DNA from: Torpedo marmorata
Taxonomy: Eukaryota
Direction of reading: 5' to 3'
Length of the DNA stretch: 61,649 bases
NCBI GenBank assembly: GCA_977017645.1
Contig: OZ360240.1
Coordinates: forward strand, 64,294,001 to 64,355,649
The position numbers and the translations under genes were made by a program. Positions 13,821-56,599 of this stretch are shown here, piece after piece. Each line of letters opens with the position of its first letter. The stretch's first letter is position 1. Below the pieces are notes generated by a model. The model did not search any database and was not told where the DNA came from. It saw only the letters and a list, made by a program, of their open reading frames with translations.

Positions 13821-14704
13821 AAATTTTTAGGACTAAAAGTTTGTGTTCCAGTACAGTTACAACACCAGCATATACCCAGCAATGTTGAAAATTGTCTAGG
13901 TATGTCCTGCTCCAGAACATAGAGTCTTGATAAAGGGTCCCGACCCAAAACGTTGACTGACCATTTCTACCCATGGATGTTATCTTACCTGCGGAGTTCC
14001 TCCAGCAATTCTTTGCCTGCTCAGAACTGGTTAATTATCAGCATAATGCCTTTATTCAATGGAAGTGTTGTGGACAGTGATAACCCATGGCACTTCCTGG
14101 TTTGACTTTTATCAGAATCACCTGGCTCCAAACATTGCTCTAAACATTGATCTGAACGAATTGCAGTGGTGAGATGGAAGTGACCACCCTCATATCAAGG
14201 AAGCATTTGACCTTGTGTGGTACCAAAGACCCTGATAAAAGCTGGTCAGCAAGCATCATGCAGAAATACTCCAATGCACAGAAGTTGTGGTTGTGATTGA
14301 TGGAGGTCAATCATCCCAGCACCAGTTTCTCCCTGCAGGAGTTCCTTCATGCACTGACCTAGGCCTCTCCATCTTCAGCTACTTCATCCATTGTAAGGTC
14401 AGAGGTGGTGATGTCATTGATTGCACAATGTTCCCTTGCATTCACAATTCCTCAGCAAATGGAGGAGTTACTGCTTTGATTAAGAAATTAGTCATTAATT
14501 TCTTCTATATCACCTTCTGTAAGAGCCGTAGGCTTGGTTACTTACCATAATCGCGGCGTTCCGATGGTCTCAGCGGGTTTCGGAGGAGACACAGAGATTA
14601 GTAGGCCATGCTGGGGCCTCTTTAGTACTCTGCGCATGCGCGGGAGTGCCGACGGGCACATGCGCAGTGGGGAAGTGGTTGGAGCATGCACACTGGGGAA
14701 GTGA

Positions 14705-17546
14705 GTGCAGTATGCACGGTGGAGTATGTGTGGTGGAGTATGTGTGGTGGAGTATGCGTGGTGGAGTATGTGCGGTGGAGTATGCGTGGTGGAGTATGTG
14801 CGGTGGAGTATGCACGGTGGAGTATGCACGGTGGAGTATGCGCGGTGGAGTATGCGTGGTGGAGTATGCGTGGTGGAGTATGAATAGTGGAGTATGAATA
14901 GTGGAGTATGCGTGGTGGAGTATGCGTAGTGGAGTATGCGTAGTGGAGCATGTGCGGTGGAGTATGCACAGTGGAGTATGCGTAGTGGAGTATGCGTAGT
15001 GGAATATACGCTGTGGAGTATGCGTGGTGGAGTATGCGTGGTGGAGTATGCGTGGTGGAGCATGCAAGGTGGAGTATGCGTAGTGGAGTATGCGCGGTGG
15101 AGTATGCGTGGTGGAGTATGCGTGGTGGAGTATGCACGGTGGAGTATGCGCGGTGCAGTATGCGCGGTGGAGCATGTGCGGTGGAGTATGCGTAGTGGAG
15201 CATGCGTAGTGGAGCATGTGCGGTGGAGTATGCGCGGTGGAGTATGTGTGGTGGAGTATGTGTGGTGGAGTATGTGTGGTGGAGTATGCGCGGTGGAGTA
15301 TGCGCGGTGGAGTATGTGTGGTGGAGTATGTGTAGTGGAGTATGCGCGGTGGAGTATGTGTGGTGGAGTATGTGTAGTGGAGTATGCGCGGTGGAGTATG
15401 TGTGGTGGAGTATGTGTAGTGGAGTATGCGCGGTGGAGTATGCGTGGTGGAGTATGCGCGGTGGAGTATGTGTGGTGGAGTATGCGTAGTGGAGTATGCG
15501 CGGTGGAGTATGCGTAGTGGAGCATGTGCGGTGGAGTATGCACAGTGGAGTATGCGTAGTGGAGTATGCGTAGTGGAGTATACGCTGTGGAGTATGCGTG
15601 GTGGAGTATGCGTGGTGGAGTATGCGTGGTGGAGTATACGCTGTGGAGTATGCGTGGTGGAGTATGCGTGGTGGAGTATACGCTGTGGAGTATGCGTGGT
15701 GGAGTATACGCGGTGGAGTATGCGTAGTGGAGCATGTGCGGTGGAGTATGCACAGTGGAGTATGCGTAGTGGAGTATGCGTAGTGAAGTATACGCTGTGG
15801 AGTATGCGTGGTGGAGTATACACGGTGGAGTATGCGTGGTGGAGTATACGCTGTGGAGTATGCGTGGTGGAGTATACACGGTGGAGTATGCGTGGTGGAG
15901 TATACACGGTGGAGTATGCGTAGTGGAGCATGTGCGGTGGAGTATGCGTAGTGGAGTATGCGTGGTGGAGTATGCGCGGTGGAGTATGCGTAGTGGAGCA
16001 TGTGCGGTGGAGAATGCGCGGTGGAGTATGCGTGGTGGAGTATGCGTAGTGGAGTATGCGTAGTGGAGTATGCGTAGTGGAGTATGCGTAGTGGAGTATG
16101 CATGGTGGAGTATGCGTGGTGGAGTATGCGTGGTGGAGTATGCGTGGTGGAGCATGCAAGGTGGAGTATGCGTAGTGGAGTATGCGTAGTGGAGCATGCG
16201 TGGTGGAGTATGCGTGGTGGAGTATGCGTAGTGGAGTATGCGTAGTGGAGTATGCGTAGTGGAGTATGCATGGTGGAGTATGCGTGGTGGAGTATGCGTG
16301 GTGGAGTATGCGTGGTGGAGCATGCAAGGTGGAGTATGCGTAGTGGAGTATGCGTAGTGGAGCATGCGTGGTGGAGTATGCGTGGTGGAGTATGCAAGGT
16401 GGAGCATGCAAGGTGGAGTAGGCGTAGTGGAGTATGCGTGGTGGAGCATGCGTGGTGGAGTATGCGTGGTGGAGTATGCGTGGTGGAGTATGCAAGGTGG
16501 AGCATGCAAGGTGGAGTATGCGTAGTGGAGTATGCGTAGTGGAGCATGCGTGGTGGAGTATGCGTGGTGGAGTATGCAAGGTGGAGCATGCAAGGTGGAG
16601 TATGCGTAGTGGAGTATGCGTAGTGGAGCATGTGTGGTGGAGTATGCGCGGTGGAGTATGCGCGGTGGAGTATGCGTGGTGGAGTATGCGTGGGGGAGTA
16701 TGCGTGGTGGAGTATGCGCGGTGGAGCATGTGCGGTGGAGTATGCGCGGTGGTGTATGCGTGGTGGGGTATGCGTAGTGGAGTATGCGTGGTGGAGTATG
16801 CGTGGTGGAGTATGCGTGGTGGAGTATGCGTCGTGGAGCATGTGCGGTGGAGTATGCACGGTGGAGTAAGCACGGTGGAGTATGCGTGGTGGAGTATGCG
16901 TGGTGGAGTATGCGTCGTGGAGCATGTGCGGTGGAGTATGCACGGTGGAGTAAGCGCGGTGGAGTATGCGTGGTGGAGTATGCATAGTGGAGTATGTGCA
17001 GTGGAGTATGCGCGGTGGAGTATGCGTGGTGGAGCATGCAAGGTGGAGGATGCGTGGTGGAGTATGCGCGGTGGAGTATGCGTGGTGGAGTATGCGCGGT
17101 GGAGTATGCGTAGTGGAGTATGCGTGGTTGAGTATGCGTGGTGGAGCATGCATAGTGGAGTATGCATAGTGGAGTATGCGTGGTGGTGCATGCAAGGTGG
17201 AGTATGCATGGTGGAGTATGCGTGGTGGAGTATGCGTGGTGGAGCATGCGTGGTGGAGTATGCGTGGTGGAGCATGTGCAGTGGAGTATGCGTGGTGGAG
17301 CATGCGTGGTGGAGTATGCGTTGTGGAGCATGTGCAGTGGAGTATGCGTGGTCGAGTATGTGCGGTGGAGTATGCGTGGTCGAGTATGTGCGATGGAGTA
17401 TGCGTGGTTGAGTATGTGCGGTAGAGTATGCATGGTGGATCATGTGCGGTGGAGTATGCGTGGTGGAGCATGTGTGGTGGAATATGCGTGGTGGATTATG
17501 CGTGGTGGAGCAGGCGCGGTGGAGTATGCGCGGTGGAGCAAGCGCA
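14705..17546. repeat. 14-bp minisatellite (consensus GTGGAGTATGCGTG), 203 units
   Basis: 2842 bp = 203 x 14; 14-aa periodicity in all three open minus-strand frames. Confidence 0.97.
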
Positions 17547-17625
17547 AATCGGGGGAGAAGAAGTAGTATAAGAATATGGCGACTTAGAAGAGGGTGAGTG
17601 AGATTGTCATATCTTTCATTGACTG

Positions 17626-17697
17626 TTTAAAGTAACATTTAAAGTAACGTTTAAAGCAACGTTTAAAGCCACGTTTAAAGCAACGTTTAAAGGAACG
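17626..17697. repeat. 12-bp tandem repeat (TTTAAAGNAACG) in the BEL LTR
   Basis: 6 units here versus 4 in the 3' LTR (from ~28558). Confidence 0.85.
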
Positions 17698-18444
17698 TTT
17701 AAATGAGTGTTTGAAGAATCGTTATTAAGCATCGTTATTAAGAATTGTTTATATTTCGTTAAGTAAGATATTTAAGTCATTGAAGATTGCTACAAGTCAT
17801 CGTGTGTAAATAAAGTTTTGAACCGATTGGACATTAGTAAATTAATTGAAACGCGTCAAGAACAAGTTTCTCACCTAGCCTCCAAGTGACTATTTGTTGG
17901 ATTGAAGTCACTATATGTTTAGTCAATGAAAGTTTTATTGTTTAGAGGAGGAAAATTGAAGGAAAGAAGATAGAATAATCTCTCTGTGCTTTGGACTGAT
18001 ATTTAAAATAAAATGACGGCCATCTTGGAGATGCCTCGAGTTGGGGCAGTTTGTAATCCACATCCATCTGCCATGAATAACAGCCAGAGGGGGAGTTAAA
18101 GCTTCAAATTTTATGGTAAAGTGTCCTATAAATACATTGGAGAAACCATTTCTTGAAAATCAGCGATATTATTGACGGATGTTGTGGTGGAAACTCGTTT
18201 GTGAATAGCAGCACATTACAGTCATCTGAAGTGGTAGGCATAAGTCTGTGGACTCCTTCTGTGTATCTTTGGCAAGTTTGAACACAGATTGGATTTGCTG
18301 CTGCTGGTCCATTGGGGACTATTGATTTGGCTAGTGTTGTGTATGCTCGAAGGACAGTGGAACAAGACGAGATAAAATGGCCGCAGCAGCCGCTGATGCA
18401 GCAGCAGCTGACGCAGCAACCACTGATGTTGCTGTATTGAAGAC

Positions 18445-20980
18445 ATGAAGGTTGTGGATATTAAAGAAGAATTGAAGCGACTGAAACTAAATATAAGTGG
18501 AAATAAAAAGGTTCTCATCGCAAGACTGAAGCTGGCAAAGGAAGAAGAGGCGGCTTCTTTTGATGAACAAGAAGACAGCAAAGTGGAAATGGCTGAAATT
18601 GTGTCACCAAATGATGAAGAAAACAAAGAGGATGAAGATGCAAAGGAGGTACAATTCGGATTGGAGAAAGAGGTAAGTAAGAAGACAACATCAGACCTGC
18701 AGGACGAAATACAAGCATGTGACAGTGTCTCAAATGTTGAAAGCAGGAGAAGCAAAAGAAGTTCTTCTGGTTTAAGCTCCAGAGTTTCTCGTACTTCAAG
18801 TTCTGCATCGTCACATACAAAGATTGAAGTTAACTTGGCCGCTCTTCTTGCACGACAAAATCCTCTTAAGGATAAACATGTTTTAGAAGAACAGGAGGAG
18901 GAACTAAGAGAACAGGAGGAGCAGCTAAGGCAGAGACAACAGGAGGAGCAGTTAAGGCAGAGCCAACAGCTAAGGAAGAGACAGGAGCAGCTAAGACAGA
19001 GAAAGGAGCAGCAGGAGCTGGAAACAAATATTGCTATTGCCATGGCTAGAAAGAAGGTACTAGAAGGCTCAATGGTATCTGGTGCTCGGAGTAAATTATC
19101 TAAAGTGTATGGTAATAAAAAGTCATATATTAAAAAAGAGTCACAGGAAAAGAAACCAACCAAAAGGATAGATATTTTAGTACCAGGGGTACAAGACTTC
19201 CAAATACAAGGACAAATCCTTCAAGAGCATAGTGTTATCAAGTCACATGTACCAGTGGTAATATCTGAAGACAAAGCTGCGGCTTGGGTTCGGTCAAACG
19301 ATGCAGCTCCCTTGTTATTTGAGTCAAGCATCAGAAATACAGGAGAAACTACACCAGTGAGGTTTCCAGATATATTACCTGTAACAAGAGGCGGTGAACA
19401 GAGCAATGTATTGTCATCCAAGGGAAGACAAAATGAAATTGCTACATCATTAATTCAGTTACATTCTCTCTCTTCTTTGCCCAAGAAAGAGATACAAACC
19501 TTTGATGGTGATCCACTTCAGTACCAAGCATTCATGAGATCTTTCAAACGCAATATTGAAAATAAATGCCAAGAGCCTGATGAATGTCTTTATTATTTGG
19601 AAATGTTCACAAAGGGACATCCAAGAGAACTTGAAAATAGTTGTCAACATATGTCCTCAGAAAGGGGATTAGACAGAGCTAAGTCTTTACTGGAACAACA
19701 TTTTGGCAACAAGCATCGAATTGCTTTAGCTTATATGGATAAAGCTCTTAAATGGACATCAATAAAACAGAATGATGTAAAAGCTCTACAAGCATATACT
19801 CTCTTTTTAAGAGGATGTTGTAATGCCATGGAAGATATCGATAATATTCATGAGCTTGAAGTGCCTGGTAATATGCGAATCATCTTAGAAAAATTACCTT
19901 ACAAGTTGTGGGATAGATGGAGAAATTTGGCTTGTGATTTACAAGAAAATTACGGTTGAAGCCACCTTAAAGGATATGGTAAATTTTCTTTAATGACAGG
20001 TCTACATTGAAACAGATCCAATATATGGAAATACCAGAGACAATTCAATGGGGAACAAAGATGTAAGGAGGTCTAACTCACGGCCTAGTCCGAAATTGAA
20101 AAGGAGTACTTTTGCTACTAATGTGTCAGTTATAAATAAAGAAAAAGATAAAGTAAATAAGGAAAAGGAAAGTTTGACCAATGAGAAGAGTTGTTTGTTC
20201 TGTAAAGGTGGACATGCTTTGGAAATGTGTTTACGGTTGGAAAACAAGGAACATAATGAGAATATCGCTTTCTTAAAGGAAAATGGAATATGTTTTAGCT
20301 GTCTGTGTAAAGGGCACATCAGTAAAAACTGTAAGAAGCAACTTAACTGTAACATATGCAATTTGAAACATCCTAGAATGTTGCATATCCATCAAAGAAA
20401 CAAGGAATTAGAAAAGGAGCAAACAGAAACAAAGGAAACATCAGAAAACAATGTTATAACCTCGGTTCAGACAGTGTGGATAACTGCAAATTTTCAATAG
20501 TGCCTGTACAAGTCAAGACCAAGAAAGGGGATGCAACAGTACATACATATGCATTTCTAGATCCAGGCAGCACTGCATCTTTTTGCACGGAAGGACTAAT
20601 GAACAAACTTAATATTCAAGGAAGAAGGTCAAGAATTATGTTGAAAACCATGGGACAAGAAAAGGTCGTTGAAACCATCATTGTTTCAGGCTTAGAGGTT
20701 GCTGGATTGGATGACAAAATTTTTTGTGATCTTCCAAGTTTATATACTCAGAAGACTATGCCTGTGCACGAAGGAAACATTCCGCATCAAAATGATTTCC
20801 ATCATTTGTCTTATCTGTGAAAGGTTTATTTACCTGAAGTTAACTCTGAGATAGAAATTCTGATTGGTTCAGATGCACCAAAGGTTTTGGAGCCAGTAGA
20901 AGTAATACGGAGTAGAGGGAATGGACCTTACGCTGTTAGAACCAAGCTTGGTTGGACAATCAATGGACCATTGGAAAGAA
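18445..20980 (+). pseudogene. BEL gag-protease, broken by frameshifts and stops
   Basis: SAP-like N-terminus; LPKKEIQTFDGDPLQYQAF gag motif; CLFCKGGHALEMC, CFSCLCKGHISKNC, CNICNLKHPRMLH knuckles; AFLDPGSTASF protease; [11 protein letters not shown] motif. Confidence 0.88.
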
Positions 20981-21481
20981 ATAATGATATTGCTCAGGAA
21001 CAGTTAGCGATTAATATTAACAGGATTTTGGTTGTGAAAGTTGATGAGTTAAGGGAAGAGCAAAAGACTGTGAATAAGAAAGTCACTTTTGAAGAAAAGA
21101 AAATAGTTCAATGTGAAAATAAATCAAAGGTATTTAAAACAACATTGAAGGAATTATTTTCACCAGAAATGGATGAAAATGAAGTATTAGAAGATGTTGC
21201 AAATAATACGAGTGATTATTCCTGTGTAATTGAATCAGAGGCAGGAATAAAACAAGTGACTGAGAACAAATTTGAAAGTAGATTTTTTAGTTCGGAGGTT
21301 ACAGCAGACAAAGTCAATGAAGAAATGTTGCAATGTGATGATAAAACTGGAGAACATAGAAAATTGTGCTGATGGAATAAATAAGAATGTGAATGATAAT
21401 TTAATGCAATTGAATTCAGAGAACAAAATGTTGAAAGGGGAATTGGAAATATTGGATAATCATGAAAACAGTAAACAGAAA

Positions 21482-21787
21482 GATTTAATTGTAAGTAAAA
21501 TTCGCAAAGTCAGAAAGCGGAAGAAAAGAATAACTGCTGAAGAAATAAATACAGTTATTGAGGGAAGAGATTCAGCATTATCAAGATGTAAAAGGTTGGA
21601 GGAAGAGATTAATATTTTGAAAGAGAACAAGTTATTCGTTAATAACACAAAACAGTTGATTATAGAAAACAATCAAGAATGTAAATTGAATGTTCAGCTA
21701 CTAACAATGCAGAAAGAAAGTGATATTGCATTGCAGAAATGTAACAAGCAAGATGAAGAAATTGAAAAATTTCAAGTTTACCACAGC
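21482..21787 (+). pseudogene. MIPOL1: Captured intronless MIPOL1-like coiled-coil fragment inside the BEL element
   Basis: KRITAEEINTVIEGRDSALSRCKRLEEE...NNTKQLIIENNQE...LLTMQ...EEIEKFQVYHS aligns by eye with recalled human MIPOL1 RITAEEMSALIEERDAALSKCKRLEQE...NNMRHLTAENNQE...LLSMQ...EEIQTLRVYYS. Needs a BLAST check. Confidence 0.78.
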
Positions 21788-22713
21788 AGGGTTGACCAAT
21801 GTATCACATGTGTTATGGACCATGACTGACCATTTGGACTGCGGACGGTCAGCAGGAAGGATGAAGTCTTTTGGAGTATACACTGGGGCCAGGTACTGAA
21901 AGAGTTAACTTCCACAGGACTTGGTGTACCCAGACAGAGAGAGAGACAAGCTGTGGACAAAGATACATTGTTGCACTTTTGGTGTACCCAGACAGAGAGA
22001 GACCAGAGAGAGAGAGACAGACTGTGGACAAGATACATTTGTTGCACTTTTGCAAAAAGCAGGTGTAGATCTCTACAAGAAGCAGACAGTTGTAAGTTGC
22101 AAAGGCTAGAGAACACAGCCAAATCCAGGCGTGTGCATAGTCAGAGAAAAGACTGGCAGAATAGCACATGGCCTCCTGTCTCAGAGAAATTCTGAGAAAA
22201 AGCAACTTCTGTGGAGAACAGGCGTGAGATCAGCGAGACTAGCTGTGAGATTCAAGCATACGCCTAAATCAGTGGTATACTGATCTGGAACTTGCAATCC
22301 TTATGAACGTACCAGAAGGGGACGTCATCAGAGAAGAAAACAGTGTCTCTCTCCAACGTTCATTCAGAAGTACTCCTACCAGACACAGAGCTGAATTTGA
22401 AGCCTGAACTTAGAGAGTGAATTTTGTAGACTGTATTATCCTTTTTTTTGACTGACTTGTTTTTTATGACTGACCTGGGGTTTTTGGGGAAAGTTTTTCT
22501 ATTTTTACATAAGGGTTGGGCACAGACTGTAATGGTCTGGGCTTTACACACACACACACACTCCTTTTAGATAAGAATAGTGTTTATAGACGTTTATAGT
22601 GGGGTTAATTGTTGTGAAATTATATGTTTAATTGTGTTTAATAAATATAAATTTCAATTTTACCCCTTTTGCATTGCGTCTTCTGTCGTTGCTGGTTTGA
22701 TTTTGTAACAAAT

Positions 22714-22738
22714 CGGGGGCTCGTCCTAGGATTTGAAT
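22714..22738 (+). promoter_or_regulatory. Primer binding site, tRNA-Pro
   Basis: CGGGGGCTCGTCCTAGGATTTGAA versus tRNA-Pro complement TGGGGGCTCGTCCGGGATTTGAA, 3 nt after the 5' LTR. Confidence 0.85.
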
Positions 22739-22841
22739 CAAAATCCATCTTGGTAATTGAAGGAATCCCAGTTTGGTTTAAGGCATTCCTTTTGTAAAGC
22801 TAATTAAAAGCTAGTGTGTGTGTAACGCAAAACCAGCAACA

Positions 22842-24056
22842 ATGGATGTCGAACATTTTTTGGAATCACCTGAACCTGATACTTTAAAAAAGGCGAAAAA
22901 GCAACAGTTAGTGGCTATAGCAACAGAGTTGGGCATTGCTTCTGTAAAACCATCTATGAAAAAGTCAGAGATTGGGAGAAAAATAGTCAAATACTATATA
23001 AAAGAAAAAAAGTTTGAGGAGAGCATGTTAGAGCAGTTTCCCAAGGGTAAACCTTCTGAAAACATACAGTTGGAACTAAAGAAATTGGAATTGGAACAAA
23101 AGAAATTAGACACGGAATTGGAACTAAAGAGATATGAGAACGATGAGAGAAATAGGAGATATGAGCTGGAAAAGATGAGGTTGGAAAATGAGAGGAGACA
23201 ACAAGAGCACTAAAATCAAATTCGTCATCCTGCTGAGGGGTTTTTGGCTAGTAGAGAAGTTAGGTTGGTTCCTCCATTTGAGGAGGCAGAAATAGATAAG
23301 TACTTCCAACATTTTGAGAAGGTGGCTGTGAAATTAAAATGGCCACAAGACCAATGGTCTCTTATGTTACAAAGTGTAATAAAAGGAAAAGCTCAGCAAG
23401 CTTATTCTACTCTTACCACGGAGCAAGCTGCTGATTATGAAACGGTGAAAAAGGCTATACTCCAGGCTTATGAGTTAGTTCCAGAGGCTTATAGACAGAA
23501 GTTTAGAAATTTAAAAAGATCAGCAACCCAATCTTATACAGAGTTTGCCTATGAAAAAGTTGTGTGTTTTGACAGGTGGTGCACATCTAAGGCAGTAAAC
23601 AATGATTACAATCAATTGAGAGAATTGATAATAATCGAGGTGATAAAAAGGTGTGTTCCTGAGGATATTAAGGCATACTTAGATGAAAAGGAGGTGAAAA
23701 CTTGGCAAAATTCAGCTAAGTTAGCAGATGAATATGCTTTAACCCACAAGCCTAAGTGGACGTCAGGTAGAATTTTCCAAAAGGTCACTGTGGATAATCA
23801 GAAGCAAGTGGAAAGTAAATTTGGAAGTGGTGTTAAGGAAAGGGATGAAGGAAAGTGGAAAAGGGAAAACAATTCGGGTCCCATTTGCCACTACTGTAGG
23901 AAGGCTGGTCATATGCTAGCAAGCTGTCCAGTGTTGAAAAAGAAGAGAGAAAAGGATGCAACACCTAATGCTTGTATTCAGAGTGAGAAGATGCATACAC
24001 CCAGGAAGGAGATAAATTTACTGACAAAGTTAAAGATGTATTTAAACCTTTTGTGA
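22842..24056 (+). pseudogene. Gmr1 gag (SCAN-like capsid CTD, CCHC knuckle), with internal stop
   Basis: LVPPFEE; PEAYRQKFR...LRELIIIE...AKLADEY; CHYCRKAGHMLASC. Confidence 0.88.
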
Positions 24057-26633
24057 CTGATGGTTTTGTTTCAGTTAAGGCAGGATCAAAACAAGTGCCA
24101 GTGAAAATCTTGCGAGATACTGGAGCTGCTCAGTCACTTGTGTTAGATAGTGTCTTGGAATTTTGAGAAGCTACTGACACCGGTGACATAAATTTAATTA
24201 AAGGAATTGGTGGCGAAGTTGAGTCCATTCCTTTGCACAAAATAGTATTGGACTCAGACTTGGTGGAAGGACCAGTTATAATAGGAGTGAGATCAGAATT
24301 GCCAGTAGAAGGAGTCTCACTGTTGTTAGGCAATGACTTGGCCAAGGGTAAAGTAGTTCCTGCAGTGCGAATGACCACTAAGCCAGTCATTGATAAGTCA
24401 GAGAAAGACTCTGATATTTATCCGGCATGTGCCATAACCAGGGCCATGTCTAAGAAAAATGTCACTGTAGAAAAGGCAGAGGAAAATAACTTGGTAAAAG
24501 AAAAAGACAGTGATAATCAAGAAAACCTGGAAAAGGTTGAGCAATCTCCTATGTTACACCCATCCACTGATAAGACACCTAAAGGCACAGATTTGTCACT
24601 ATCCCGACAGGAGTTAATAGCAAGGCAAAAGGACGATCCTGATCTTGTTGAGGTGAGGGATAAGGTTCTCTATGAAGAGGAGATTAAAAAGGTGCCAGTA
24701 GGTTATTATGAAAAAGATGGGGTGTTGATGAGAAAGTGGAGACCACGTGATGTTCCTGCCAATGAAGAATGGGCAGTAGTGCAGCAGGTTGTGATCCCTA
24801 AAGTATATAGGGATGCAATAATAACTTTGGCTCATAGTACACCCTTAGGTGGTCACCTTGGGGTGAAGAAAACTATAAGGAAGATAATGAAACAATTTTA
24901 TTGGCCCAGTTTGAGAAGGGAGATTGTAAGCTTTTGCCGGGCCTGTCACACTTGTCAGGTGGTGGGTAAACCTAATCAGGGTCCCCCGGTGGCACCCTTC
25001 CAACCTATCCCTGCTTTCAGTGAGCCTTTCTCGAGAGTAATTGTGGACTGTGTTGGCCCATTGCCCAAAACCAAAGCGGGAAATGAGTATTTGTTAACAA
25101 TTATGTGTGCAGCCACCAGATTTCCAGAGGCCATTCCTCTGAGAAACATAAAAGCAAAGTCAATTGTAAAGGCTATGGTAATGTTTTTCACCTTGGTAGG
25201 TTTGGAAGGGAAATTCAATCAGATCAGGGCAGTAATTTCATGTCAGGCGTTTTCCAACAAGTGGTTGATGGACTAGGAGTTAAACAGATTGTATCCTCTG
25301 CGTACCATCCAGAAAGTCAAGGGGCCTTGGAGAGGTTCCATTCGACTTTGAAAACCATGATTAGAACCTATTGTTGTGAGAAGGAAAAGGATTGGGATGA
25401 GGGGGTTCATTTGTTGTTATTTGCAGCGAGGGAGTCTGTCCAAGACTCACTTGGTTTTAGTCCATTCGAGTTAGTTTTCGGACATGAGGTGAGAGGTCCT
25501 TTAAGATTATTAAAAGAACAGTGGATTAATAGTGATGTGCATTTAAATCTGTTAGATTATGTTTCCAAATTTAAGGATCGGTTACATAGGGCTTGTGAGA
25601 TGGCAAAGGAGAATTTAAGGCCACTCAACGGAGAATGAAGGTTTGGTATGATCGAAAGGCGAAGATGAGAACTTTTAAACCTTGTGAGAACGTATTAGTT
25701 CTGTTTCCCATCCATTCAAATCCTCTTAGGGCTAGATTTTCAGGACCCTATAGAGTTAAGTCAAAAATTAATGATGTCACCTATGTCATAGAAACACCTA
25801 ATCGCAGATGAGACACACAGGTCTGTCATGTGAATATGATTGAGCCGTATTTTGAACAGGTGCCTCAAAAAGGGACTGAACATTTACCAGAGGTACTGGT
25901 TATTGATCAGGGTAAGGAGGAGACCGATGAAACCAGTTTCAGAGAGGGTCATGGGACTGTTAATTCTCTGAGTTATGTTGTAGGACAGGGGAAGTTGGCG
26001 CCAGTAGAGGCAAAGGTTGTCGCTATTTCCGAGTTCCCTGTTCCAACTGGTAAGAAAACTCTGAGGAGGTTCCTGGGAATGATTGGCTACTACCGCAAGT
26101 TCTGTAAAAACTTTGCTGATCTTGCGCTCCCTCTCACAAAGTTGCTTAGAAAGAAAGAAAAATTTGTATGGTCTACAGGTTGTCAGGAAGCATTTGTCAA
26201 ATTGAAAACCATGTTATGCCACCAACCTGTGCTTAAGTCACCTAATTTAGAACAGCCGTTTTCTTTAGCCGTGGATGCCAGCGATGAAGCTGTGGGTGCG
26301 GTGCTGTTACAGAAGAAGAACGAAGAGGACATTGACCATCCGGTATCCTACTTCTCGAAGAAGTTCAATGATCATCAAAGGAATTATTCAACTATAGAAA
26401 AAGAGTTGTTAGCTCTTGTGTTGGCTCTACAACACTTTGATGTGTATATCTGTACAGCTCAAAAACCACTCATAGTGTATACTGACCATAATCCATTGGT
26501 TTTTCTTTGTAAAATGAAAAATAAGAATCGACGGTTGTTGAATTGGAGTCTAATTTTGCAAGAATATAATTTGGTAATCACTCATATAAAAGGGAAAGAT
26601 AATGTAATTGCTGATTGTCTTTCTAGATGTTAA
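24057..26633 (+). pseudogene. Gmr1 pol remnant: protease, integrase, RT C-terminal part and RNase H
   Basis: ILRDTGAAQS (~24107); AHSTPLGGHLG...CRACHTC, IVDCVGP, QSDQGSNF, ESQGALERFH; RRFLGMIGYYRKF, AVDASD, IEKELLA, YTDHNPL, ADCLSR; no YxDD motif. Confidence 0.88.
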
Positions 26634-28250
26634 CCTTTATCAATGAAAATAGTTCATATTTTGTATTTGTGGATGAACATTGTAGATTTTGTTTATATTC
26701 TGACACCTCAATTACTTTCCTAAATTTTGTTCTTGCAGACCAAAATTTCCTTTGTGGGTGGGAGGTGTTATGGACCATGACTGACCATTTGGACTGCGGA
26801 CGGTCAGCAGGAAGGATGAAGTCTTTTGGAGTATACACTGGGGCCAGGTACTGAAAGAGTTAACTTCCACAGGACTTGGTGTACCCAGACAGAGAGAGAG
26901 ACAAGCTGTGGACAAAGATACATTGTTGCACTTTTGGTGTACCCAGACAGAGAAAGACCAGAGAGAGAGAGACAGACTGTGGACAAGATACATTTGTTGC
27001 ACTTTTGCAAAAAGCAGGTGTAGATCTCTACAAGATGCAGACAGTTGTAAGTTGCAAAGGCTAGAGAACACAGCCAAATCCAGGCATGTGCATAGTCAGA
27101 GAAAAGACTGGCAGAATAGCACATGGCCTCCTGTCTCAGAGAAATTCTGAGAAAAAGCAACTTCTGTGGAGAACAGGCTTGAGATCAACGAGACTAGCTG
27201 TGAGATTCAAGCATACGCCTAAATCAGTGGTATACTGATCTGAACTCGAAATCCTTATGAACGTACCAGAAGGGGACGTCATCAGAGAAGAAAACAAGTA
27301 TTTGTAAGCATAAACAGTCATTGTCTCTCTCCAACCTTCATTCAGAAGTACTTCTACCAGACACAGAGCTGAATTTGAAGCCTGAACGTAGAGAGTGAAT
27401 TTTGTAGACTGTATTATCCTTTTTTTTGACTGACTTGTTTTTTATGACTGACCTGGGGTTTTTGGGGAAAGTTTTTCCATTTTTACATAAGGGTTGGGCA
27501 CAGACTGTAATGGTCTGGGCTTTACACACACACACACACACCTTTTAGATAAGAATAGTGTTTATAGACGTTTATAGTGGGGTTAATTGTTGTGAAATTA
27601 TATGTTTAATTGTGTTTAATAAATATAAATTTCAATTTTACCCCTTTTGCATTGCGTCTTCTGTCGTTGCTGGTTTGATTTTGTAACACATGATATTTTC
27701 ACTTCAGATCAAGCTATTAATTTCTCGGAAGGAACTGAGACTGAATTGAAAGTTGCAAAATTGGATTTGGAATTTCAGGAAAAGGCAATAGACACCAGAG
27801 TGGTTAAAGAGACTTGTTTATTAAAATCGAGAGGATCAGATAAATATTCAAATTCTGGTTCTAAGAGTTTAAATTCTTCATACGAGAAGTGGAATGCTGA
27901 AGAGAGGAATAAAGTGAAACGACATGCTGAAGTAGTATCTCCTGTTAAATTCAAAAGAAAATCTATCTATTTTGTCTATGGAAGATTTGAGGTTTACTGG
28001 TCGACGTTTTAACTCAAAGATTCTGGAGATAAAAGAACTTTGAAAAATACAAACTGACTTTATTTTGTTGTTGTATACTACACAGGTTACGGACTTTTAT
28101 TGATCCAGAGTTATGGTAAACTCTGGTCTTGAGAAGAAAGAAGAAAGAAGATTGGATATTGTTTGAATGTTATATGGTTATTTTTATTTGTAATTGATTG
28201 TGTAATTATTATTTAAGACATTGCGTCTAATTATAAAAATTAGGGGTCGG

Positions 28251-28825
28251 TGTAAGAGCCGTAGGCTTGGTTACTTACCGTAATCGCGGCATTCCGATGG
28301 TCTCAGCGGGTTTCGGAGGAGACACGGAGATTAGTAGTCCGTGCTGGGCCTATTTAGTACTCTGCGCATGAGCGGGAGTGCCGATGGGCGCATGTGCAGT
28401 GGGGAAGTGGCTGGAGCATGCGCTGTGGGGAAGCGAGTGCAGTATGCGCGGTGGAGTTTGCGCGGTGGAGTATGCGTGAATCGAGGGAGAAGAAGTAGTA
28501 CAAGAATATGGCGACTTAGAAGAGGGCGAGTGAGATCATCATAGCTTTCATTGACCGTTTAAAGTAACGTTTAAAACCACGTTTAAAGCCACGTTTAAAG
28601 GAACGTTTAAAGGAGTGTTTGAAGAATCGTTATTAAGCATCGTTATTAAGAATTGTTTATATTTCGTTAAATAAGATATTTAAGTCATTGAACATTGCTA
28701 CAAGTTATCATGTGTAAATAAAGTTTTGAACCGATTGGACTTGTTAGTAAATTAATTGAAACGCGTCAAGAACAAGTATCTCACCTAGCCTCCAAGTGAC
28801 TATTTGTTGGATTGAAGTCACTATA
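28251..28825 (+). repeat. BEL 3' LTR (575 bp)
   Basis: Copy of the 5' LTR with only three 14-bp units (28437-28478). Confidence 0.92.
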
Positions 28826-28918
28826 CCTTCTTCTCCAAGTAATCAACACTCAATGTAAAACACATAGGAAAGCAGGGGCTTCATCTGCACTGATGCATGA
28901 AGTGGCCATGCTCCTGCC

Positions 28919-33412: not shown

Positions 33413-33540
33413 TGTTATGGACCATGACTGTCCATTTGGACTGCGGACGGTCAGCAGGAAGGATGAATTCTTTTGGAGTACACACTGGGACCAGGTACTG
33501 AAGAGTTAACTTGCCCAGGACTGGGTGTGCTCAGAGAGAG

Positions 33541-33585
<45 letters not shown>

Positions 33586-34312
33586 CTGTGGAAAGATACT
33601 TTGTTGACACTTTTGCAAAAGCAGGTGAAAATCTCTGCAAAAAAAGCATTCAGTTTTGAGTTGCAAGAGGCTGAAGCAACAACACCAAATCCAGGTTTGT
33701 GCATTCCAGCAGAAAAGGCTGGGAGAATCACACATGGCCTCCTTTATCAGCAAAATCCTGAGATAAAGCAACTTTTGTGGAGAACAGGCGTGAGATCAGT
33801 GAGACCGGCTGTGAGATCCAAGTATACGCCTCAATCAAAACTGATTTGGAATCGCAATCATTGTGCACCTACCAAAAGGGAAAGTCATCAGGGAAGAAAA
33901 GCAGGCCAAGCATTCATAATCTTAAACAGTCATTGTCTCTCTGTCCAACGTTCATTAAGAAGTCCTTCGTGCCAGCGCACAGAACTGAATTTGAACCCTG
34001 AACATAGAGAGTGATTTTTGTGGACTGTATTTTTGGGACTGACTTATTTTTATGACTGACCTGGGGTCTTGGGGAAGGTTTTCCATTTTTACATGAGGGT
34101 TGGGCACAGACTGTAATGGTCTGGGCTTTACACACACACACACTCACACACACACACGCACACTCTCTTTTGATAAGAATAGTGTTTATAGACGTTTATA
34201 GTGGGGTTAATTGTTAAGAAATTATATGTTTAATTGTCTTTAATAAATATAAATTTCAATTTTACCCCTTTTGCATTGCGTCTTCTGTTGTTGCTGGTTT
34301 GATTTTGTAACA
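33413..34312 (+). mobile_element. Solo LTR of the Gmr1-like family, inside a minus-strand CR1 3' end
   Basis: TGTTAT...GTAACA; TSD GTGG (33409-33412, 34313-34316). Confidence 0.92.
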
Positions 34313-35844
34313 GTGGAAAAAACTTACCTCTGACGTCTCCCCTGAACTTTCCTCAATTCACCTTGAACAGATGACCTCTGGTATTTGCTACTGTTGCCTG
34401 TCATTTGCTATTGTCATCTTGTGCTGCAGTTAACCATTGAAAATCATCCAAAGAAATTAGCTGCAAAGGTAATTGTCAACCTGAACCAAAAACTGCCAGG
34501 CACAAGCTGGGGAGCACTTGGGTCAGTGCTACAGATTCCTGTAATCGTACACTCAGGATCACGATAGAGGCGTGCTTGAATTCAACTGAGAACTGCAGTG
34601 CGGTGCATCAGTGGAGCCTTGAAGTTTGTTCCATCACCCTGACTACCCCTGCTGACAATTAGTGTTCCCTATCCTCTCCTCACATTGCTCACCTTCTGCA
34701 AAGTCCAGTCAGTCGAGGGAAACCAGCAAATCCCTGTCCACCAAGATCGAGCCAGTTTTCCCTCCCGTCATTTGCATCTGCCTCTGGGGGCACACGTAAA
34801 CAGACCTTGGCAGATGGGTATACTTGAGGCACCAAAATATGCACTTGTGGTCATCGGGAACATCTGCTGCCTGACTTCCTGCTCGATCCAAAAATAAAAA
34901 GGTATCAAATCAATATTCCCTGCTACCTTTGACAAAATTGCTTGGTTTAAACATCTCAATTATTGCAGTTTCCCTACAGATAGCCCAACCACATGAATGA
35001 TGATTGACATGCAACACCACCTCAGTTTCTTTCTCACAGAAGCTGCTTGACCTGCTGAGTATTTCACGGTCATGGAGTTATAGAGAGCCCATTAAGTTCA
35101 CAGCGACTTTCAAGCACACATTATTACACCAACTCCTTCTCTAACCCGCTTTATTATCTCCACATTTTCATCAACACCCCTCCCCCACCCCCCCTCCCCC
35201 ACCCCTCCCCCACCCCACCCCCCTCCCACCCCAGATTCTGCACTCTAGGAGCAATTTGCAGCATCAAATGAACCCAGCAACTTCATGTCTTTGGGGTATG
35301 AGAGGGGAAACCCAAGTGGTCACAGGGGGGAACAGGCAAATTCCACTCACAGACAGCACCAGTGGTCTAGATTGAACCCAGGTCACAGGAGCAAGTCCAG
35401 CACCTTATGTTTTTGTTTCAGGTTTCCTGCATCTGTGGCATTTTCCTTTTACAATTTGTCTCACGCTTGAGACCTACCTCTCTGACATCATGATCAAGAG
35501 ACTCAGAGCAACATTAACATGGTCAACAGGCTGCCAATTCTGGCCATTCTATTTAGACAGTAATCCATCAATAAACAGAAGAGTAAACATCCGTTGTGCT
35601 TTGTTTATTAACGTTCCTCAGATGCATTTAATTTATTCTGCTGGCAAATTTTATCTCTTATTTCTGAGTGATCATTTCCAAAAGTTTTACTTCCTATTCT
35701 TTCATTAAATAACCTGATAGTGTTTCCAGTATTTTTATTTCTTGAGAGGCACAAGGGAAATTCTGAAGAGAATTGTTAACTGATTCATAAGTTGTTTCAA
35801 GGCAGAGTAGAAAGTACAGGAACAGGAGTCAGGGGAGTTAGTGG

Positions 35845-36695
35845 TGTTACAAAATCAAACCAGCAATGACAGAAGATGCAATGCAAAAGGGGTAAAATTG
35901 AAATTTATATTTATTAAAGACAATTAAACATATAATTTCACAACAATTAACCCCACTATAAACATCTATAAACACTATTCTTAGCTAAAGAGTGTGTGTG
36001 TGTATAAAGCCCAGACCATTACAGTCTGTGCCCAACACTCATGTAAAAATGGAAAACCTTCCCCAAAACCCCCAGGTCAGTCATAAAAATAAGTCAGTCC
36101 CAAAAATACAGTCCACAAAAATCACTCTCTATGTTCAGGGTCAAAATTCAGCTCTGCGCGCTGGCATGAAGGACTTCTTAATGAACGTTGGAGAGAGAGA
36201 CAATGACTGTTTAAGCTTACGAATGCTTGGCCTGCTTTTCTTCCCTGATGACTTTCCCTTTTGGTAGGTGCACGAGGATTGCGATTCCAAATCAGTTTTG
36301 ATTGAGGCATATACTTGGATCTCACAGCCTGTCTCGCTGATCTCACGCCTGTTCTCCACGAAAGTTGCTTTATCTCAGGATTTTGCTGATACAGGAGGCC
36401 ATGTGCTATTCTCCCAGCCTTTTCCGCTGGAATGCACAAGCCTGGATTTGGTGTTGTTGCTTCAGCCTCTTGCAACTCAAAACTGGATGCTTTTTGCAGA
36501 GGTTTGCACCTGCTTTTGCAAAAGTGTAACAAAGTACCTTTCCACAGCCTGTCTCTCTCTCTGTGTCTCTCTCTGAGCACAACCAGTCCTGGGCAAGTTA
36601 ACTCTTTCAATACCTGGTCTCAGTGTGTACTCCAAAAGACTTCATCCTTCCTGCTGACCATCCGCATTCAAAATGGTCAGTCATGGTCCATAACA
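35845..36695 (-). mobile_element. Solo LTR of the Gmr1-like family
   Basis: TGTTAC...ATAACA; TSD GTGG (35841-35844, 36696-36699). Confidence 0.92.
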
Positions 36696-36813
36696 GTGGA
36701 CAAAGGCATTGGGCACATTGAAGTCCGGTGGGGCGGTTAACGTGAAACACTTAGAATATTGGGATACAGGGAAAGCAGATTATCTTTCAGCAAAGCGAAG
36801 GTCAGCTGTCAAT

Positions 36814-39501: not shown

Positions 39502-42310
39502 AAATAAATGATTCTTTCAAAGATTTTTATTTGAATTTATATACATCTCAAGCCGATAAAGATGACTCTAAAATTAACAAATTTTTATCCAAAATTAAGA
39601 TGCCCAGGTTAGATACACTTAGTAAAGAATCTTTAGATTCACCATTTACGATGAGGGAAGTCAATGAGGTTCTTAGTTCTTTAACAAGTGGGAAATCTCC
39701 GGGGGAGGATGGTTTCCCATCAGAATTTTATAAGAAATTTAAGGACTTATTGATACCTCCTTATATGGAGGTGTTAAAACAAATAACGGAAACCCATTCT
39801 CTACCGGAATCCTTCTCAAATGCATTATTAACAGTTATACCAAAAAAAGATAGAGACTTGTTGAAATAGACCAATATCGTTGTTAAATGTGGACTATAAA
39901 ATAATGGCGAAAATTTTAGCAAATAGATTTACCAGATTTAGTCCATGTAGATCAAGCAGGCTTTATTAGAAACAGATATTCAAATGATAATATCGCTTGA
40001 TTAATTAGTCTAATAAACGTGGCACAAAAAAGAGAAGAACTGTCATTAGTATTAACATTAGATGCCGAAAAGGCTTTTGATAGATTAAAGTGGAATTATG
40101 TATTTAAGGTACTGGAAAAATTCGGTTTTGGAAATACATTTATTAATTGGATTAAAACTATATATAAAGAACCGTCTGCTAGAGTGGTCACAAATGGACA
40201 AATATCTTCAAAATTTTCCTTAACTAGGTCTACTAGACAAGGTTGTCCTTTATCGCCAGCATTGTTTATTTTAGCAATAGAACCTTTAGCCGTATTAATT
40301 AGACAAGATATTAAGATTGCAGGTATTAAAGTTGGTAATGAAGAACACAAAATTAGTTTATTTGCAGATGACGTATTGATATATATGACAAAACCTATTA
40401 GTTCTCTAACACAATTGTCTGTTTTATTGAAGGAATATGGGGAAATATCTGGTTATAAGATTAACTCGGATAAAAGTGAAATTATGCCTTTAACACAAGG
40501 GGACTATAGTGATTGTAAAGAAATTACACAATTTAAATGGTCAAAGGAAGGAATTAAATATTTGGGAATAAAGATTGATACAAAATTAGCCAATTTATAT
40601 AAATTAAATTATTTACCATTATTTATGAAAATTAAAAAAGATTTAGAAAGTTGGAAGGATTTACCTATAACTTTAATAGGAAGGATAAACTGTATTAAAA
40701 TGAATGTTTTTCTAAGAATTCAGTATCTTTTTCAATCAATTCCTTATGAAATTCTTCAGAAATTCTTTAAAGATTTAAATTTTATTATTAGGAAGTTTTT
40801 GTGGAAAGGAAAGTTGGCTAGAGTAGGTATGGAGAAATTAACCTGGAATTATGAAATGGGTGGTCTACAACTTCCTAATTTTCAATATTACTATTAAGCA
40901 GCCCAACTAAAATTTATTAAAGAACTGTTTGATTTAGGGAAACTCTCTGCTTGGATTAGAATATAATTAAATAACATAGGAGAGGATTTGAAAGAAGAAG
41001 TCATTTATAAATGGAATTCTAAATTATTATTAACTAAAGGGAAAAATTCTCCTATTTTTAGGCATTTGTTAGAAATGTGGAATAGAGTGGATAGAGAAAT
41101 AGGAGCGAAAGGGTCAATCTCTCGAAGAATGCCTCTGTATCAAAATAATCCTATCCCATTTACTGTTGATAATCAATTATTTAAAATTTGGTTCCAAAAG
41201 GGAATTAAGGAAATAAATGATTGTTTTGAAGCTGGTAAATTTATTACGTTTCAGAGAATGAAAGATAAGTTTAGTGTAGCAAATAATACAATCTTTGCTT
41301 ACTATCAAATTAGGGCATTTTTAGTTGAAAGGTTGGGTCATGGTTTGACCTTACCAAGACAGACTGAATTGGAATTATTAGTTACTAATGGAGGTGTGCC
41401 TAAATTTATTTCTCAAATGTATAGATTGTTACAGAGGAAATTTCCTAAATCAGGAATTCATAAATCAAGATTAAATTGGGAAAAAGATTTGAATGTAACA
41501 ATAGATGAAGAACACTGGAAAAAATTATGTAAACAAAGTATGACGAAGATTATTAATGTTAGATACAGATTGGTGCAATATAATTTTTTTCATCAATTGT
41601 ATTTAACACCTAAAAGACTAAAGAAATTTAATCCGACGTTATCTGGTTTATGTTTTAGATGTAATAGTGAGGAAGGTTCTTTTGTACACTCCACATGGTT
41701 ATGTCCAAAAGTGTATGATTTCTGGTTGAAGGTTAAAAAGTTTTTGGATAGGGTATTGGGAGTTACACTCCCAATGGATCCTATGATATTTTTGTTTGGA
41801 GATATTGAAGGAACCAGTGTTAAAATGAAATTAAATATGTATCAGACAGAATTTTTACGTATTGCTTTAGCCGTTTCTAAGAAATGTATTGCCATTACAT
41901 GGAAGTCGGATGTAGATTTAGGGTTGGAAAGATGGCATGCAGAATTGCGTTCATGTATACCACTCGAAAAAATTACTTATAATTTACGTGGTAAATATTA
42001 TTTCTTTTTGAATGTATGGAGCCCATATATAAAAACTGTTGGTTTAAGGATTTGAAGATCTCCGGATATCAGATCTGATTGGCGAACCTGTGTTCCACAA
42101 TAAAATTAGTTTATAGTTGTTCTTTTTTAGAGTGACATTCTCCTTACTTTATCTTTTTCTTCTTCTTTCTTTCTTTTCGGGAGGGTTAGGGAGGGGAGGG
42201 AGGGAGGGAGGGGGGGGTGAAAATGTATCACATGTAATCTGATAAATTTGCATTTTAAACTATGTACTGTGTGATTAAAAAATTTTAAATAAAATATTTT
42301 TTTAAAAAAG
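39502..42310 (+). mobile_element. 5'-truncated L1-clade LINE (ORF2 RT and C-terminal Cys region, 3' UTR), with stops
   Basis: GKSPGEDGF, LDAEKAFDR, TRQGCPLSP, LFADD, IKYLGI, CFRC...H....C; G-rich 3' UTR, AATAAA and A-rich tail. Confidence 0.93.
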
Positions 42311-53799: not shown

Positions 53800-55567
53800 T
53801 CATTCATGTCCTTTAAAAAACAATCTGAATTTTCCAGCAATCAACCGTACAGTGTGGCAAAAATAGATAAAGCCAAAATGGTGGCATTAGGGAAATGTAT
53901 CTATACAATGATATTGATGATGAGTTTATTGTCATACACATTATACAATCTACGTATACACTGGAAGTCTTACTTGCTGCAGCTGAACAGGTATTTTGTA
54001 AGAAAAACTACAAAAACAACTCAAAAATAACTATTCTAGTGTACTTAATTGAATTAAAGAGACAAATAAATACAAAATAGATATTTTAGGTTGTTTTGTT
54101 ATTGCACCGGATAAACTTGTCGTTTAATGGAATTCCTAACTTGGAGTAGCTGCAGCAGTGAACAAAATACAACTCATGAGGTAGGAATATTTTTCCTGTG
54201 AGATCAGCAGTTCGACCTTCCTTACATCAGTCTATGGTGAATTTCCTCTCCGGCACCACGCACAGTCTTCGGCATATGCGATCCTGTTACTCATTGAGTG
54301 TAGCCATGACGGATCTCGCCACATTGTGGGCCAGAATGGCAGACTCAGTCCTTCACAATGGGCACGTTTGCTCACTGAGAAATGCACTGAATAGTAAATG
54401 TGTGCCTCACAGATCAAAGAGAAGGAAGGCTGACATTTATACATGAGTTAATTTGAAGCTATCTGACCTTGCTGCGCAGGTTAAAGCAGCAACTACTTTG
54501 CACGCAGATAGACGTCACAAACAGAAACAGGATCAGCTCACCAGCACATCAGCCACCCCACCAGAGGCCTCAATGCCCTCGACCATTGCTACACAACCAC
54601 GAAAAGTGCCTCTGCTCTGTCCCACACCCACATTTTATTGGATAAGACTACCAGTCAATGCTACTCCTACCTGCCGATAAGCAGAAGCTGTGATGTGTGC
54701 ACCAGGTAGTAAGTCATAGAACATATAGAACATAGAACATTACAGCACAGTACAGGACCTTCAGCCCTCAATGTTGTGCCGACCTATATATTCCTACAAA
54801 AAAATACTAAACCCATCCAACCTCGTAACCTTCTATTTTTCTTTCATCCATGTCTCTTAAATGCCCCCAATGTTTCAGCCTCCACCACCATCCCTGGCAA
54901 GGCATTCCAGGCGCCACAACTCTCTGTGTAAAAAACTTACCCGTAATGTCTACCCTAAACTTTCCTCCCTTCACTTTGTAGAGATGTCCCCTGGTGTTTG
55001 CTACTCCTGCCCTGGGAAAAGGCGCTGGCTGTCCACTTTATCTATGCCTCTCAGAATCTTGTAGACCTCTATCTGTCTGCCTTATGGTAGACAAAAATTA
55101 AAGAATTTCATGTATGTTACATTCTAAATGTAGTATTACGTGACAATAATGGAACCTTTACCTTTACCTTAAATCTCCTCTCATCCTTTTTCTCTCCAAA
55201 AAGAAAAATCCCAACTCTGCTAACCTTGCCTCATAAGACTTATTTTCCAATCCAGGCAACATCCTGTTAAATCTCCTCTGCACCCTCTCCATAGCTTCCA
55301 CATCCTTCCTGTGGTAAACCACTTTGTAGAGGTTGTGGGCTGGGTGATATGTCTGGACATGCCCTCTGCTGACTGTCCTGGTGGCTCCTCCCACAGACTC
55401 CCCGAATAAAGACGATTGTGCCACCTCTCCTCCCCCAGTCTGGGACAGATTACCAGCACGGATGTAGCTCCATTCTTTTGCTAATAAAAGCCTTTCAGTT
55501 CAAGTACAACTTCTAGTCTTTTGAAGTTATTGATGGGCTCATCAATTTTATTAACAAAATCGTAAGC

Positions 55568-56345
55568 ATGGAGAATGTCTTGAGACCAGACAAGCTGGAC
55601 CTCGATCCACAAACACCAGAGGCCGGCAACGCTTTTGAAATCTGGCTAGCCTGCTTTGAGTCGTTCCTGGAGGAGATCAAGATACAAGAAGACGCTGCAA
55701 AATGCAAAGTCCTCCTCTCTAGGTTAAGGCCAGGGGTCTACTCGATGATCCGAGACCTGCGGACTTTCGAAGACGCAATGAATTCCCTTAAAAGACAATA
55801 TATACGGCCAGATAATACAGTATACGCACGACACCGGCTAGAGATGCGGCAGCAGCGGCCCGGTGAGTCGAGCGCAGAGTTCGGCCGGGCCCTACAGACA
55901 CTCGTGCGGGCCTGCGACTGCCAGGGACTGACGGCCGAACAACACGCGAAGCTCCTGGTAAGAGACGCTTTCATTACTGGGATCAGGTCGGTGTATGTAC
56001 GCCAGCGCCTGCTGGAACAAGCTGAACTCACCTTCCGTTCGGCGATAGAGCTGGCCGATACACTGGAAGCCGCGTTGCAGAACTCCGATGCTATCCACGC
56101 GCGTGATCTCCCGCCGGCTCCATGGATACCACAGACCCCACACCACGTCGGTGAATCGACCACAGCTGCCATCAGCCGCGAGTCCGAGAAATGCTACTTC
56201 TGCAGACTCGAAAAGCACCCCCGAAAACGTTGCCCGGCCCAAGAAGTGACCTCCTCCAGCTGCGGGAAGAAAGGCCATTTCGCCAAGGTCTGTAAGTCTA
56301 AACCACGAGCAGGATCGAGCAGCGCCATGTGCGAGGCATGGGGTT
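55568..56345 (+). pseudogene. Mag-like gag
   Basis: RQQRPGES, LVRDAFITGI, double knuckle CYFC...HPRKRCPA...CGKKGHFAKVC. Confidence 0.85.
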
Positions 56346-56599
56346 GCCATTGTTGCCGTCGCCATCTTGCCCGTCCACCGCCACCAAGTGCGAGACATGG
56401 GGGCGGCCATCTTGTGTGTCGTCACTTCCGTCGCCGCCATCTTACTTACCCGCGGCAAACTCGTGCGAATCATGAGAGCGGCCATTTTGTTTGACGCCAT
56501 CGCGCTGACACAGCATGCCACCATCCCGGAACACCTGGCACTCCATCGCATCGGATCAAGACAGAGACTCAACTTTGGCATCTGTTACACTCGACCAAA

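Follow-up and report, generated by a model that had tools for sequence, protein, structure and literature searches.

The closest described counterpart of the priming system considered here is that of the Tf1 group, reportedly worked out by Levin (1995, 1996), Lin and Levin (1997, 1998), and Atwood-Moore (2006). In Tf1 and Tf2 of Schizosaccharomyces pombe, in Tj1, and in Tf1/sushi elements, a site following the 5′ LTR is complementary to an 11-nt segment of the LTR itself (excerpts of PMC7175516, PMC4600332, PMC5341516, and PMC11042837). Specifically, the first 11 bases of Tf1 RNA pair with the primer-binding site, with RNase H cleavage falling between bases 11 and 12 (PMC7175516, in excerpt). 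Approximately half of Tf1 cDNA ends in a single-stranded copy of the primer-binding site, and reverse transcriptase (RT) adds untemplated bases (PMC11042837, in excerpt). Self-priming has also been predicted from sequence in the Copia lineages TAR, Houba, and Osr-1 and in Tcn1 (PMC6317226, in excerpt). Finally, the fungal element GalEa has no tRNA site after its 5′ LTR; its hairpin is located entirely downstream of the LTR, and no LTR complement was found, as excerpts of PMC5445492 describe it.

For the BEL/Pao group, the ICTV profile of the Belpaoviridae lists, as a descriptive trait rather than a phylogenetic criterion, a site of 18 nt matching tRNA-Arg or tRNA-Gly, and calls replication poorly understood (PMC8742986). 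Our literature search returned no prior report of BEL self-priming; an earlier remark may exist beyond its scope, in GyDB, in Repbase Reports, or in subscription literature, for instance where Suzu was described. Word look-up in the main texts of the BEL surveys PMC554778, PMC3118150, PMC6238403, and PMC8556966 found no mention of a primer site, and the excerpts of PMC3601003, PMC5445492, PMC7472051, PMC8220671, PMC6934838, PMC4600332, and PMC5341516 name no BEL self-priming.

Here, we analyze a candidate self-priming site in a 61,649-nt stretch of the Torpedo marmorata genome (GenBank assembly GCA_977017645.1, contig OZ360240.1), which we call the window. By its sequence, the host element is a BEL/Pao retrotransposon, apparently a non-autonomous one. 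It occupies 14518-28825 on the forward strand, the strand also of its parts and of the nested gypsy element described below, between identical CCTTC target-site duplications (14513-14517 and 28826-28830). The 5′ LTR (14518-17915) runs TG...TA, and its U3 is swollen by a 14-bp tandem array at 14718-17538. This array, a 2.8-kb minisatellite that arose within the LTR post-insertion, has ~201 copies of the unit by TRF; the 3′ LTR (28251-28825) has 2.6 copies at the corresponding position. Outside the array, the two LTRs are identical at 511 of 542 aligned bases. A short polypurine tract, AGGGG plus a 4-nt spacer (28242-28250), precedes the 3′ LTR and has the same form in related families. The interior retains a broken gag-protease region (18427-21063; SAP, DUF1759) with no BEL RT, RNase H, or integrase. 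It corresponds, at 64-79% identity, to residues 41-941 of the 2064-aa polyprotein frame of L165, a coding relative whose domain order is DUF1759, RVT_1, Peptidase_A17, integrase, and DUF5641, a Pao-type set. The SAP domain sits at the N terminus of Gag (18427-18530), and L165 has one too. The deletion junction of the window copy is also present in copy L150. Given the missing enzymes and the shared junction, the family is presumably non-autonomous and copied in trans.

Membership in BEL/Pao follows from TG-start LTRs (ending TA here, CA or TA in relatives), the polypurine tract, the target duplication, DUF1759 in the window, and the Pol order PR-RT-RH-IN taken from L165. The nearest named proteins are from teleost fishes, and the group is abundant in T. 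marmorata (24,019 first-look gag candidates). Inserted in the element at 21811-27688 is a gypsy element with a SCAN domain, an integrase placed ahead of its RT-RNase H, and the 4-bp target duplication CATG, which we take to be Gmr1-like and which lies outside the priming system. The tRNA-like site after its LTR (22711-22735) is presumably of tRNA-Pro type; its 3′ motif has 4,887 genomic matches, and none of the four loci checked contained a tRNA gene. LTR copies of this gypsy family, 74-89% alike and in both orientations, also lie at 879-1761, 33413-34312, and 35841-36699. The window further holds a LINE-type RT frame with zf-RVT (40001-42055), along with one more LTR element (55517-59129), which has frames for RT and integrase.

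The two complementary segments flank the point where the 5′ LTR terminates. AGTCAATGAAAG (17921-17932) is the exact reverse complement of CTTTCATTGACT (17613-17624), with TGTTT (17916-17920) between the LTR end and the downstream arm. An earlier note had described this 12-nt complement 5 nt past the LTR, its retention at 11 of 12 bases in the 3′ LTR, and the absence of a TGG-type site after the 5′ LTR; all three descriptions are accurate, the 3′ copy lying at 28545-28555 and no TGG following the 5′ LTR. Its twelfth pair, exact in the window copy, is incidental to the family. Among the best 30 of 40 scored family copies, drawn from 6,530 candidates, 17 pair at 11/11 positions; at the base after the 11-mer, in a CpG context, 24 copies have C and 6 have T. 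Because C predominates there, the conserved helix is 11 bp, joining 17613-17623, the predicted self-primer, to 17922-17932, the predicted primer-binding site; 17624 pairs as a minority variant. The spacer (17916-17921) is thus 6 nt here and 0-7 nt across families. When the non-repetitive part of the LTR was shuffled by dinucleotides, 6 of 5000 shuffles gave a complement of at least 12 nt; for the whole LTR it was 0 of 1000, and 0 of 343 internal 30-nt windows reach an 11-nt LTR complement. The helix has a primer's polarity: the LTR segment is paired with its 3′ end beside the spacer, pointing into U5.

Other signals surround the segment. A likely polyadenylation signal, AATAAA, lies at 17809-17814, and A(A/T)TAAA occurs 3′ of the primer in 13/13 representative copies; its position would place the primer segment in the R region. 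TATAAG (17567-17572) does lie where the earlier note placed it, 46 nt upstream of the segment, and finds no support as a core promoter: it is TACAAG in the 3′ LTR, is present in only 20/30 family copies, and has no TATA(A/T) counterpart within 60 nt upstream in 11 representative copies of other clusters. A splice-donor-like GGTGAGT lies at 17593-17599, and GT(A/G)AG occurs 14-26 nt upstream of the primer in 10/13 representative copies; it could be an intron relic, a U1 site suppressing 5′ polyadenylation, or a promoter element. Immediately 3′ of the segment, a 12-bp GTTTAAAGCAAC-type tandem (17625-17703) forms small hairpins and differs in copy number between copies. A U5 terminal stem (17885-17912, pairing 17885-17891 with 17906-17912) shows a T-A to C-G change in other families. 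It is predicted in most of 13 copies, and in 6 of the 13 at most 7/200 shuffles fold as well; in the others it is weak (26/200 in the window copy). The 340-nt leader folds no better than its shuffles (z -0.32); the helix is nonetheless in the centroid structure.

Covariation between the two segments, which the earlier note had named as a test of its idea, is found across BEL families of the same genome. We retrieved 80 regions of 10 kb, each surrounding a match to DUF1759, the Pao peptidase, or DUF1758; the DUF1758 search contributed 2 matches and no new lineage. In 19 regions no 5′ LTR end could be located; it was placed in 22 by both LTRs and an exact duplication and in 39 by similarity, giving 62 elements with the window. 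The post-LTR site pairs with the element's own LTR at 9 or more of 11 positions in 60/62 elements, perfectly in 30, and the 62 include nine distinct perfectly paired 11-mers. Examples of the helix are CTTTCATTGAC (window), CTTTATTGAC (L165, 10 bp), TCTCTGTCGAC (L168), TTTCTGTTGAC (L099), ATTCTATTGAC (L088), CTTTTATTGAC (L087), and ATATTTTCTTTGAAT (L081, 15 bp, with both arms shifted one base). L168, with TCTCTGTCGAC/GTCGACAGAGA, belongs to the same gag cluster as copies with CTTTATTGAC/GTCAATAAAG. Mean own pairing is 10.47/11 versus 6.21 across clusters (2,594 pairs), the own score being inflated by anchoring on the best match. In an 11 x 11 table, every post-LTR stretch (11/11) finds its longest complement, 10-15 nt, in its own LTR, with ties only between copies sharing a primer core; judged by duplex energy, the element's own LTR segment comes first or ties for first in just 7/11 rows. 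The helix edge is sharp: the position past the primer 3′ end is Watson-Crick in 2/60 and G-U in 22/60. In cluster 1, pairing restarts at positions 14-16 after a mismatch. In RT, the families diverge from L165 at ~20-35% of residues at most; they share ancestry, so the matched changes are not independent events. Pairing, polarity, and covariation are established. In the young cluster (L153, L156, L159, and L165), LTRs end TA rather than CA, and the integrated LTR end shifts by subfamily, lying 0, 2, or 6 nt before the binding site; the integrase processing site appears movable.

The host tRNAs scanned offer no comparable partner. The set scanned, assembled by Rfam search and from 20 cluster regions, comprises 55 genes, 35 of them distinct, for 10 isoacceptors of 7 amino acids, including Arg(TCG, TCT) and Gly(CCC). 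When whole tRNAs with CCA were compared with the 28 bases at the LTR end, the longest complement was 6-7 nt in 8/8 representatives, versus 10-15 nt for their own LTRs. Thus, across these 10 isoacceptors, no match exceeds 7 nt, and the 18-nt tRNA-Arg or tRNA-Gly site of the family profile is absent: there is no TGG, and the best match with Arg TCG/TCT and Gly CCC in the set is 6-7 nt. TGG does occur at the site in one copy, L081, and is lacking in its siblings.

Tf1 cDNA ends predict two traces here: variable bases just past the copied site and fold-back of the copied site on the LTR segment. Directly past the helix lie two hypervariable bases (17933-17934), which may mark the primer's 5′ end. 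In the window's family, their non-majority fractions are 0.70 and 0.43, versus 0-0.07 within the helix, and the first is the most variable of 420 columns. The same column reaches 0.47 in cluster 1 (17 copies); in cluster 3 it is weak (0.24) and not among the top columns. One cluster 3 site variant is identical at 20 places, mostly small contigs, and probably represents one copy amplified in a repeat array. Patterns for fold-backs at the helix had 104 genomic matches in three families (3 + 78 + 23), reversed control patterns had 0, and a like pattern at the U5 stem, searched in one variant only, also had 0.

We read 43 of these fold-back loci (3/3, 20/78, and 20/23), some neighbors among them being two ends of one event. 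By reading, 26/43 arms extend back to the LTR start, and 12 of those continue into the polypurine tract; 6/43 return to normal internal sequence, and 11/43 end otherwise. Arm lengths are scattered, at 19-79 nt in the 6 arms that resume internal sequence, with a lower bound set by the patterns. Exact 5-bp duplications surround two U3 ends in 2/7 fold-back insertions checked, indicating that those fold-backs inserted as such. L327, L331, and others of L306-L348 are near-palindromic LTR insertions with two U3 ends, and some larger L306-L348 insertions continue, on the opposite strand, into 3′ internal sequence. The fold-backs show that DNA ends at the helix occur; because the design of the patterns fixes the junction, neither a preference for the helix nor the identity of the primer follows from them. 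Together with the hypervariable bases, they suggest that cDNA ends at the helix. Gap patterns for extended binding sites gave 211, 24, and 2 matches; no RNA start was readable among the 100, 24, and 2 listed, which are mostly variants of 1-4 bases after the helix. Contigs from three runs on a related LTR were too fragmented to join both arms.

More distant relatives also retain the pairing with changes on both sides, and many appear to assemble the complementary segment by splicing. A scan of metagenome contigs yielded 79 loci with RT 38-76% identical; viral contigs contained no relative. All four loci whose LTR end is known have a site that matches a predicted exon junction within the LTR over 11-15 nt. 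The four LTR introns, predicted from sequence, have canonical donors, pyrimidine-rich acceptors, and lengths of 76-186 nt, and 0/200 shuffles were as good for each. In an open scan of 50 segments, at most 2/40 shuffles were as good in 22, some of them at implausible sites. A second scan used rules set after the earlier results (site starting GT or AT, primer then C or G, shuffles of 2-letter blocks) on 39 segments, 26 of which the analyst had already typed; 14 spliced and 9 contiguous forms passed (23/39), and 16 failed. L294, spliced by eye, was missed by the scan, and L270 and L300 failed it. L233 has an ambiguous site: the apparent binding site complements segments both upstream in the LTR and ~70 nt downstream, a possible alternative pairing. 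In L223, at 76% RT identity, the helix is contiguous and 15 bp long.

A quick RT tree of 51 rows groups the families of the T. marmorata genome with L223 at support 100, inside a 20-row clade (support 91) in which every one of the 14 typed members is contiguous. The spliced forms fall elsewhere in the tree, intermixed with other contiguous forms; the root is a midpoint root, and we claim no direction. A splice-built primer was considered for the window's own clade and rejected, as junction matches are 0-5 nt versus 10-15 nt contiguous in 8/8 copies. A GT...AG stretch also precedes the window primer; at 19 nt, it is too short for an intron. We speculate that contiguous primers are decayed splice acceptors. 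The pyrimidine share is 0.66 for contiguous primers, 0.44 for exon-1 ends, and 0.81 for acceptors, figures from related rows with acceptors pre-selected for pyrimidines. We lean slightly toward a broader picture in which a large BEL/Pao branch of aquatic animals is tRNA-independent and has two interconvertible forms, one with a primer splice-assembled across an LTR intron and the other with an intron-free primer. The window's clade would be intron-free, derived from or sister to spliced lineages, and more than one switch would have occurred, since the site is rewritten from whichever primer is used.

The reading we consider likely, by a good margin, is Tf1-like self-priming by the 11-nt LTR segment after fold-back and cutting of the RNA. 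The earlier note had raised fold-back priming for this BEL lineage; pairing, covariation, the tRNA test, negative over 10 isoacceptors, and the traces of cDNA ends all support it. Specifically, transcription would start at or a few bases before 17613 (near 17611-17613), and the first 11-13 nt of the RNA would anneal to 17922-17932. Cleavage of the RNA would fall after 17623, the RNase H probably belonging to an RT that coding relatives provide in trans, and minus-strand DNA would then copy the spacer, U5, and R. The start, the cut, and the enzyme are modeled on Tf1. The retained primer would later be copied into the plus strand, so that the binding site is rewritten from the primer, with matched changes and variable untemplated bases behind the site as the outcome. 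Since LTR changes would in this way enter the site without a second mutation, such copying would explain the frequent matched changes between close families. The extra pairing of cluster 1 (positions 14-16) and the donor-like motif upstream of the primer leave room for an RNA start farther upstream than that of Tf1.

Other explanations would account for parts of these data. Chance complementarity in AT-rich DNA is scarcely credible: both arms are AT-rich and the twelfth pair is incidental, but covariation refutes it, and the shuffle tests, the own-LTR maxima in the table, and the pairing in relatives also speak against it. Covariation alone proves pairing, not priming, and the U5 stem covaries too. 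Thus, the helix could be a structural or regulatory RNA element, such as a packaging, translation, or polyadenylation switch, in an element primed by other means. We hold this to be improbable, as in every cluster the LTR end and the 3′ arm are 0-7 nt apart, the helix is sharply bounded and oriented as a primer would be, the 10 isoacceptors scanned reveal no alternative primer site, and DNA products turn exactly at the helix.

The remaining alternatives accept the site as a primer-binding site and differ on the primer. A tRNA half or other host small RNA could prime, with the LTR segment merely resembling it. The ICTV describes the family as tRNA-primed (PMC8742986), half-tRNA priming is known in Copia lineages (PMC6317226, in excerpt), and most isoacceptors lie outside our set of 10. 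Nevertheless, to account for nine paired 11-mers within a single genome, as many distinct host RNAs would have to coincide with the LTR, the best match among 35 distinct tRNAs, Arg and Gly included, is 6-7 nt, and the sites of relatives complement predicted splice junctions; we rate this explanation marginally below a purely structural role. Unlikely too, if the least so of the four, is priming by element RNA of another origin, namely a second packaged RNA, the 3′ copy of R, or a longer 5′ fragment. The segment is in R and present in both LTRs, the 12/43 fold-back arms that run through U3 into the polypurine tract imply a 3′-LTR template in those cases, and the donor-like motif and extra cluster 1 pairing fit as well. 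Against this, variability begins right after 10-11 paired bases, as if the primer ends there, and a copied primer-binding site annealing to the plus-sense LTR explains the fold-backs. Self-priming by the cut 5′ end remains the reading we prefer.

On this reading, the T. marmorata element resembles Tf1/sushi elements in the position of the site, its complementarity to an LTR segment, the 11-nt length, a predicted U5 stem, and signs of a copied site with untemplated bases (to the extent that the excerpts cited above describe them). Unlike those Ty3/gypsy elements (Metaviridae), it is BEL/Pao by its proteins and no chromovirus: its family has Pao-specific domains, and no chromodomain match was found. 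Its primer sequence is unrelated to theirs and varies among families (10-15 bp), the spacer ranges from 0 to 7 nt, and relatives are predicted to build the primer by splicing. With the Belpaoviridae, the family shares LTRs, the 5-bp duplication, the Pao peptidase, DUF1759, DUF5641, and, in coding relatives, a one-frame Gag-PR-RT-RH-IN; it differs from their profile in having no TGG site and no tRNA-Arg or tRNA-Gly match (PMC8742986). The sequence criterion, a run of at least 10 bases that begins 0-5 nt past the LTR and can pair with it, is common to Copia TAR, Houba, and Osr-1 and to Tcn1, which belong to other superfamilies and hosts and for which excerpts of PMC6317226 report no splice-built primer. 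In contrast to GalEa, the partner of the site lies inside the LTR (PMC5445492, in excerpt). The trait is real and well supported from sequence in these BEL/Pao elements, with a probable mechanism like that of Tf1/sushi in an element that is not a Tf1/sushi member.

Few traits define groups of LTR retroelements, and the primer is among them. If our interpretation is correct, a mechanism proven only in gypsy elements of fission yeast would extend to a third superfamily. Elements using it would not depend on tRNAs supplied by the host, nor would they be subject to silencing through 3′ fragments of tRNAs. Such priming would also explain why annotation based on primer-binding sites misses BEL elements, and it would link priming to splicing in their relatives.
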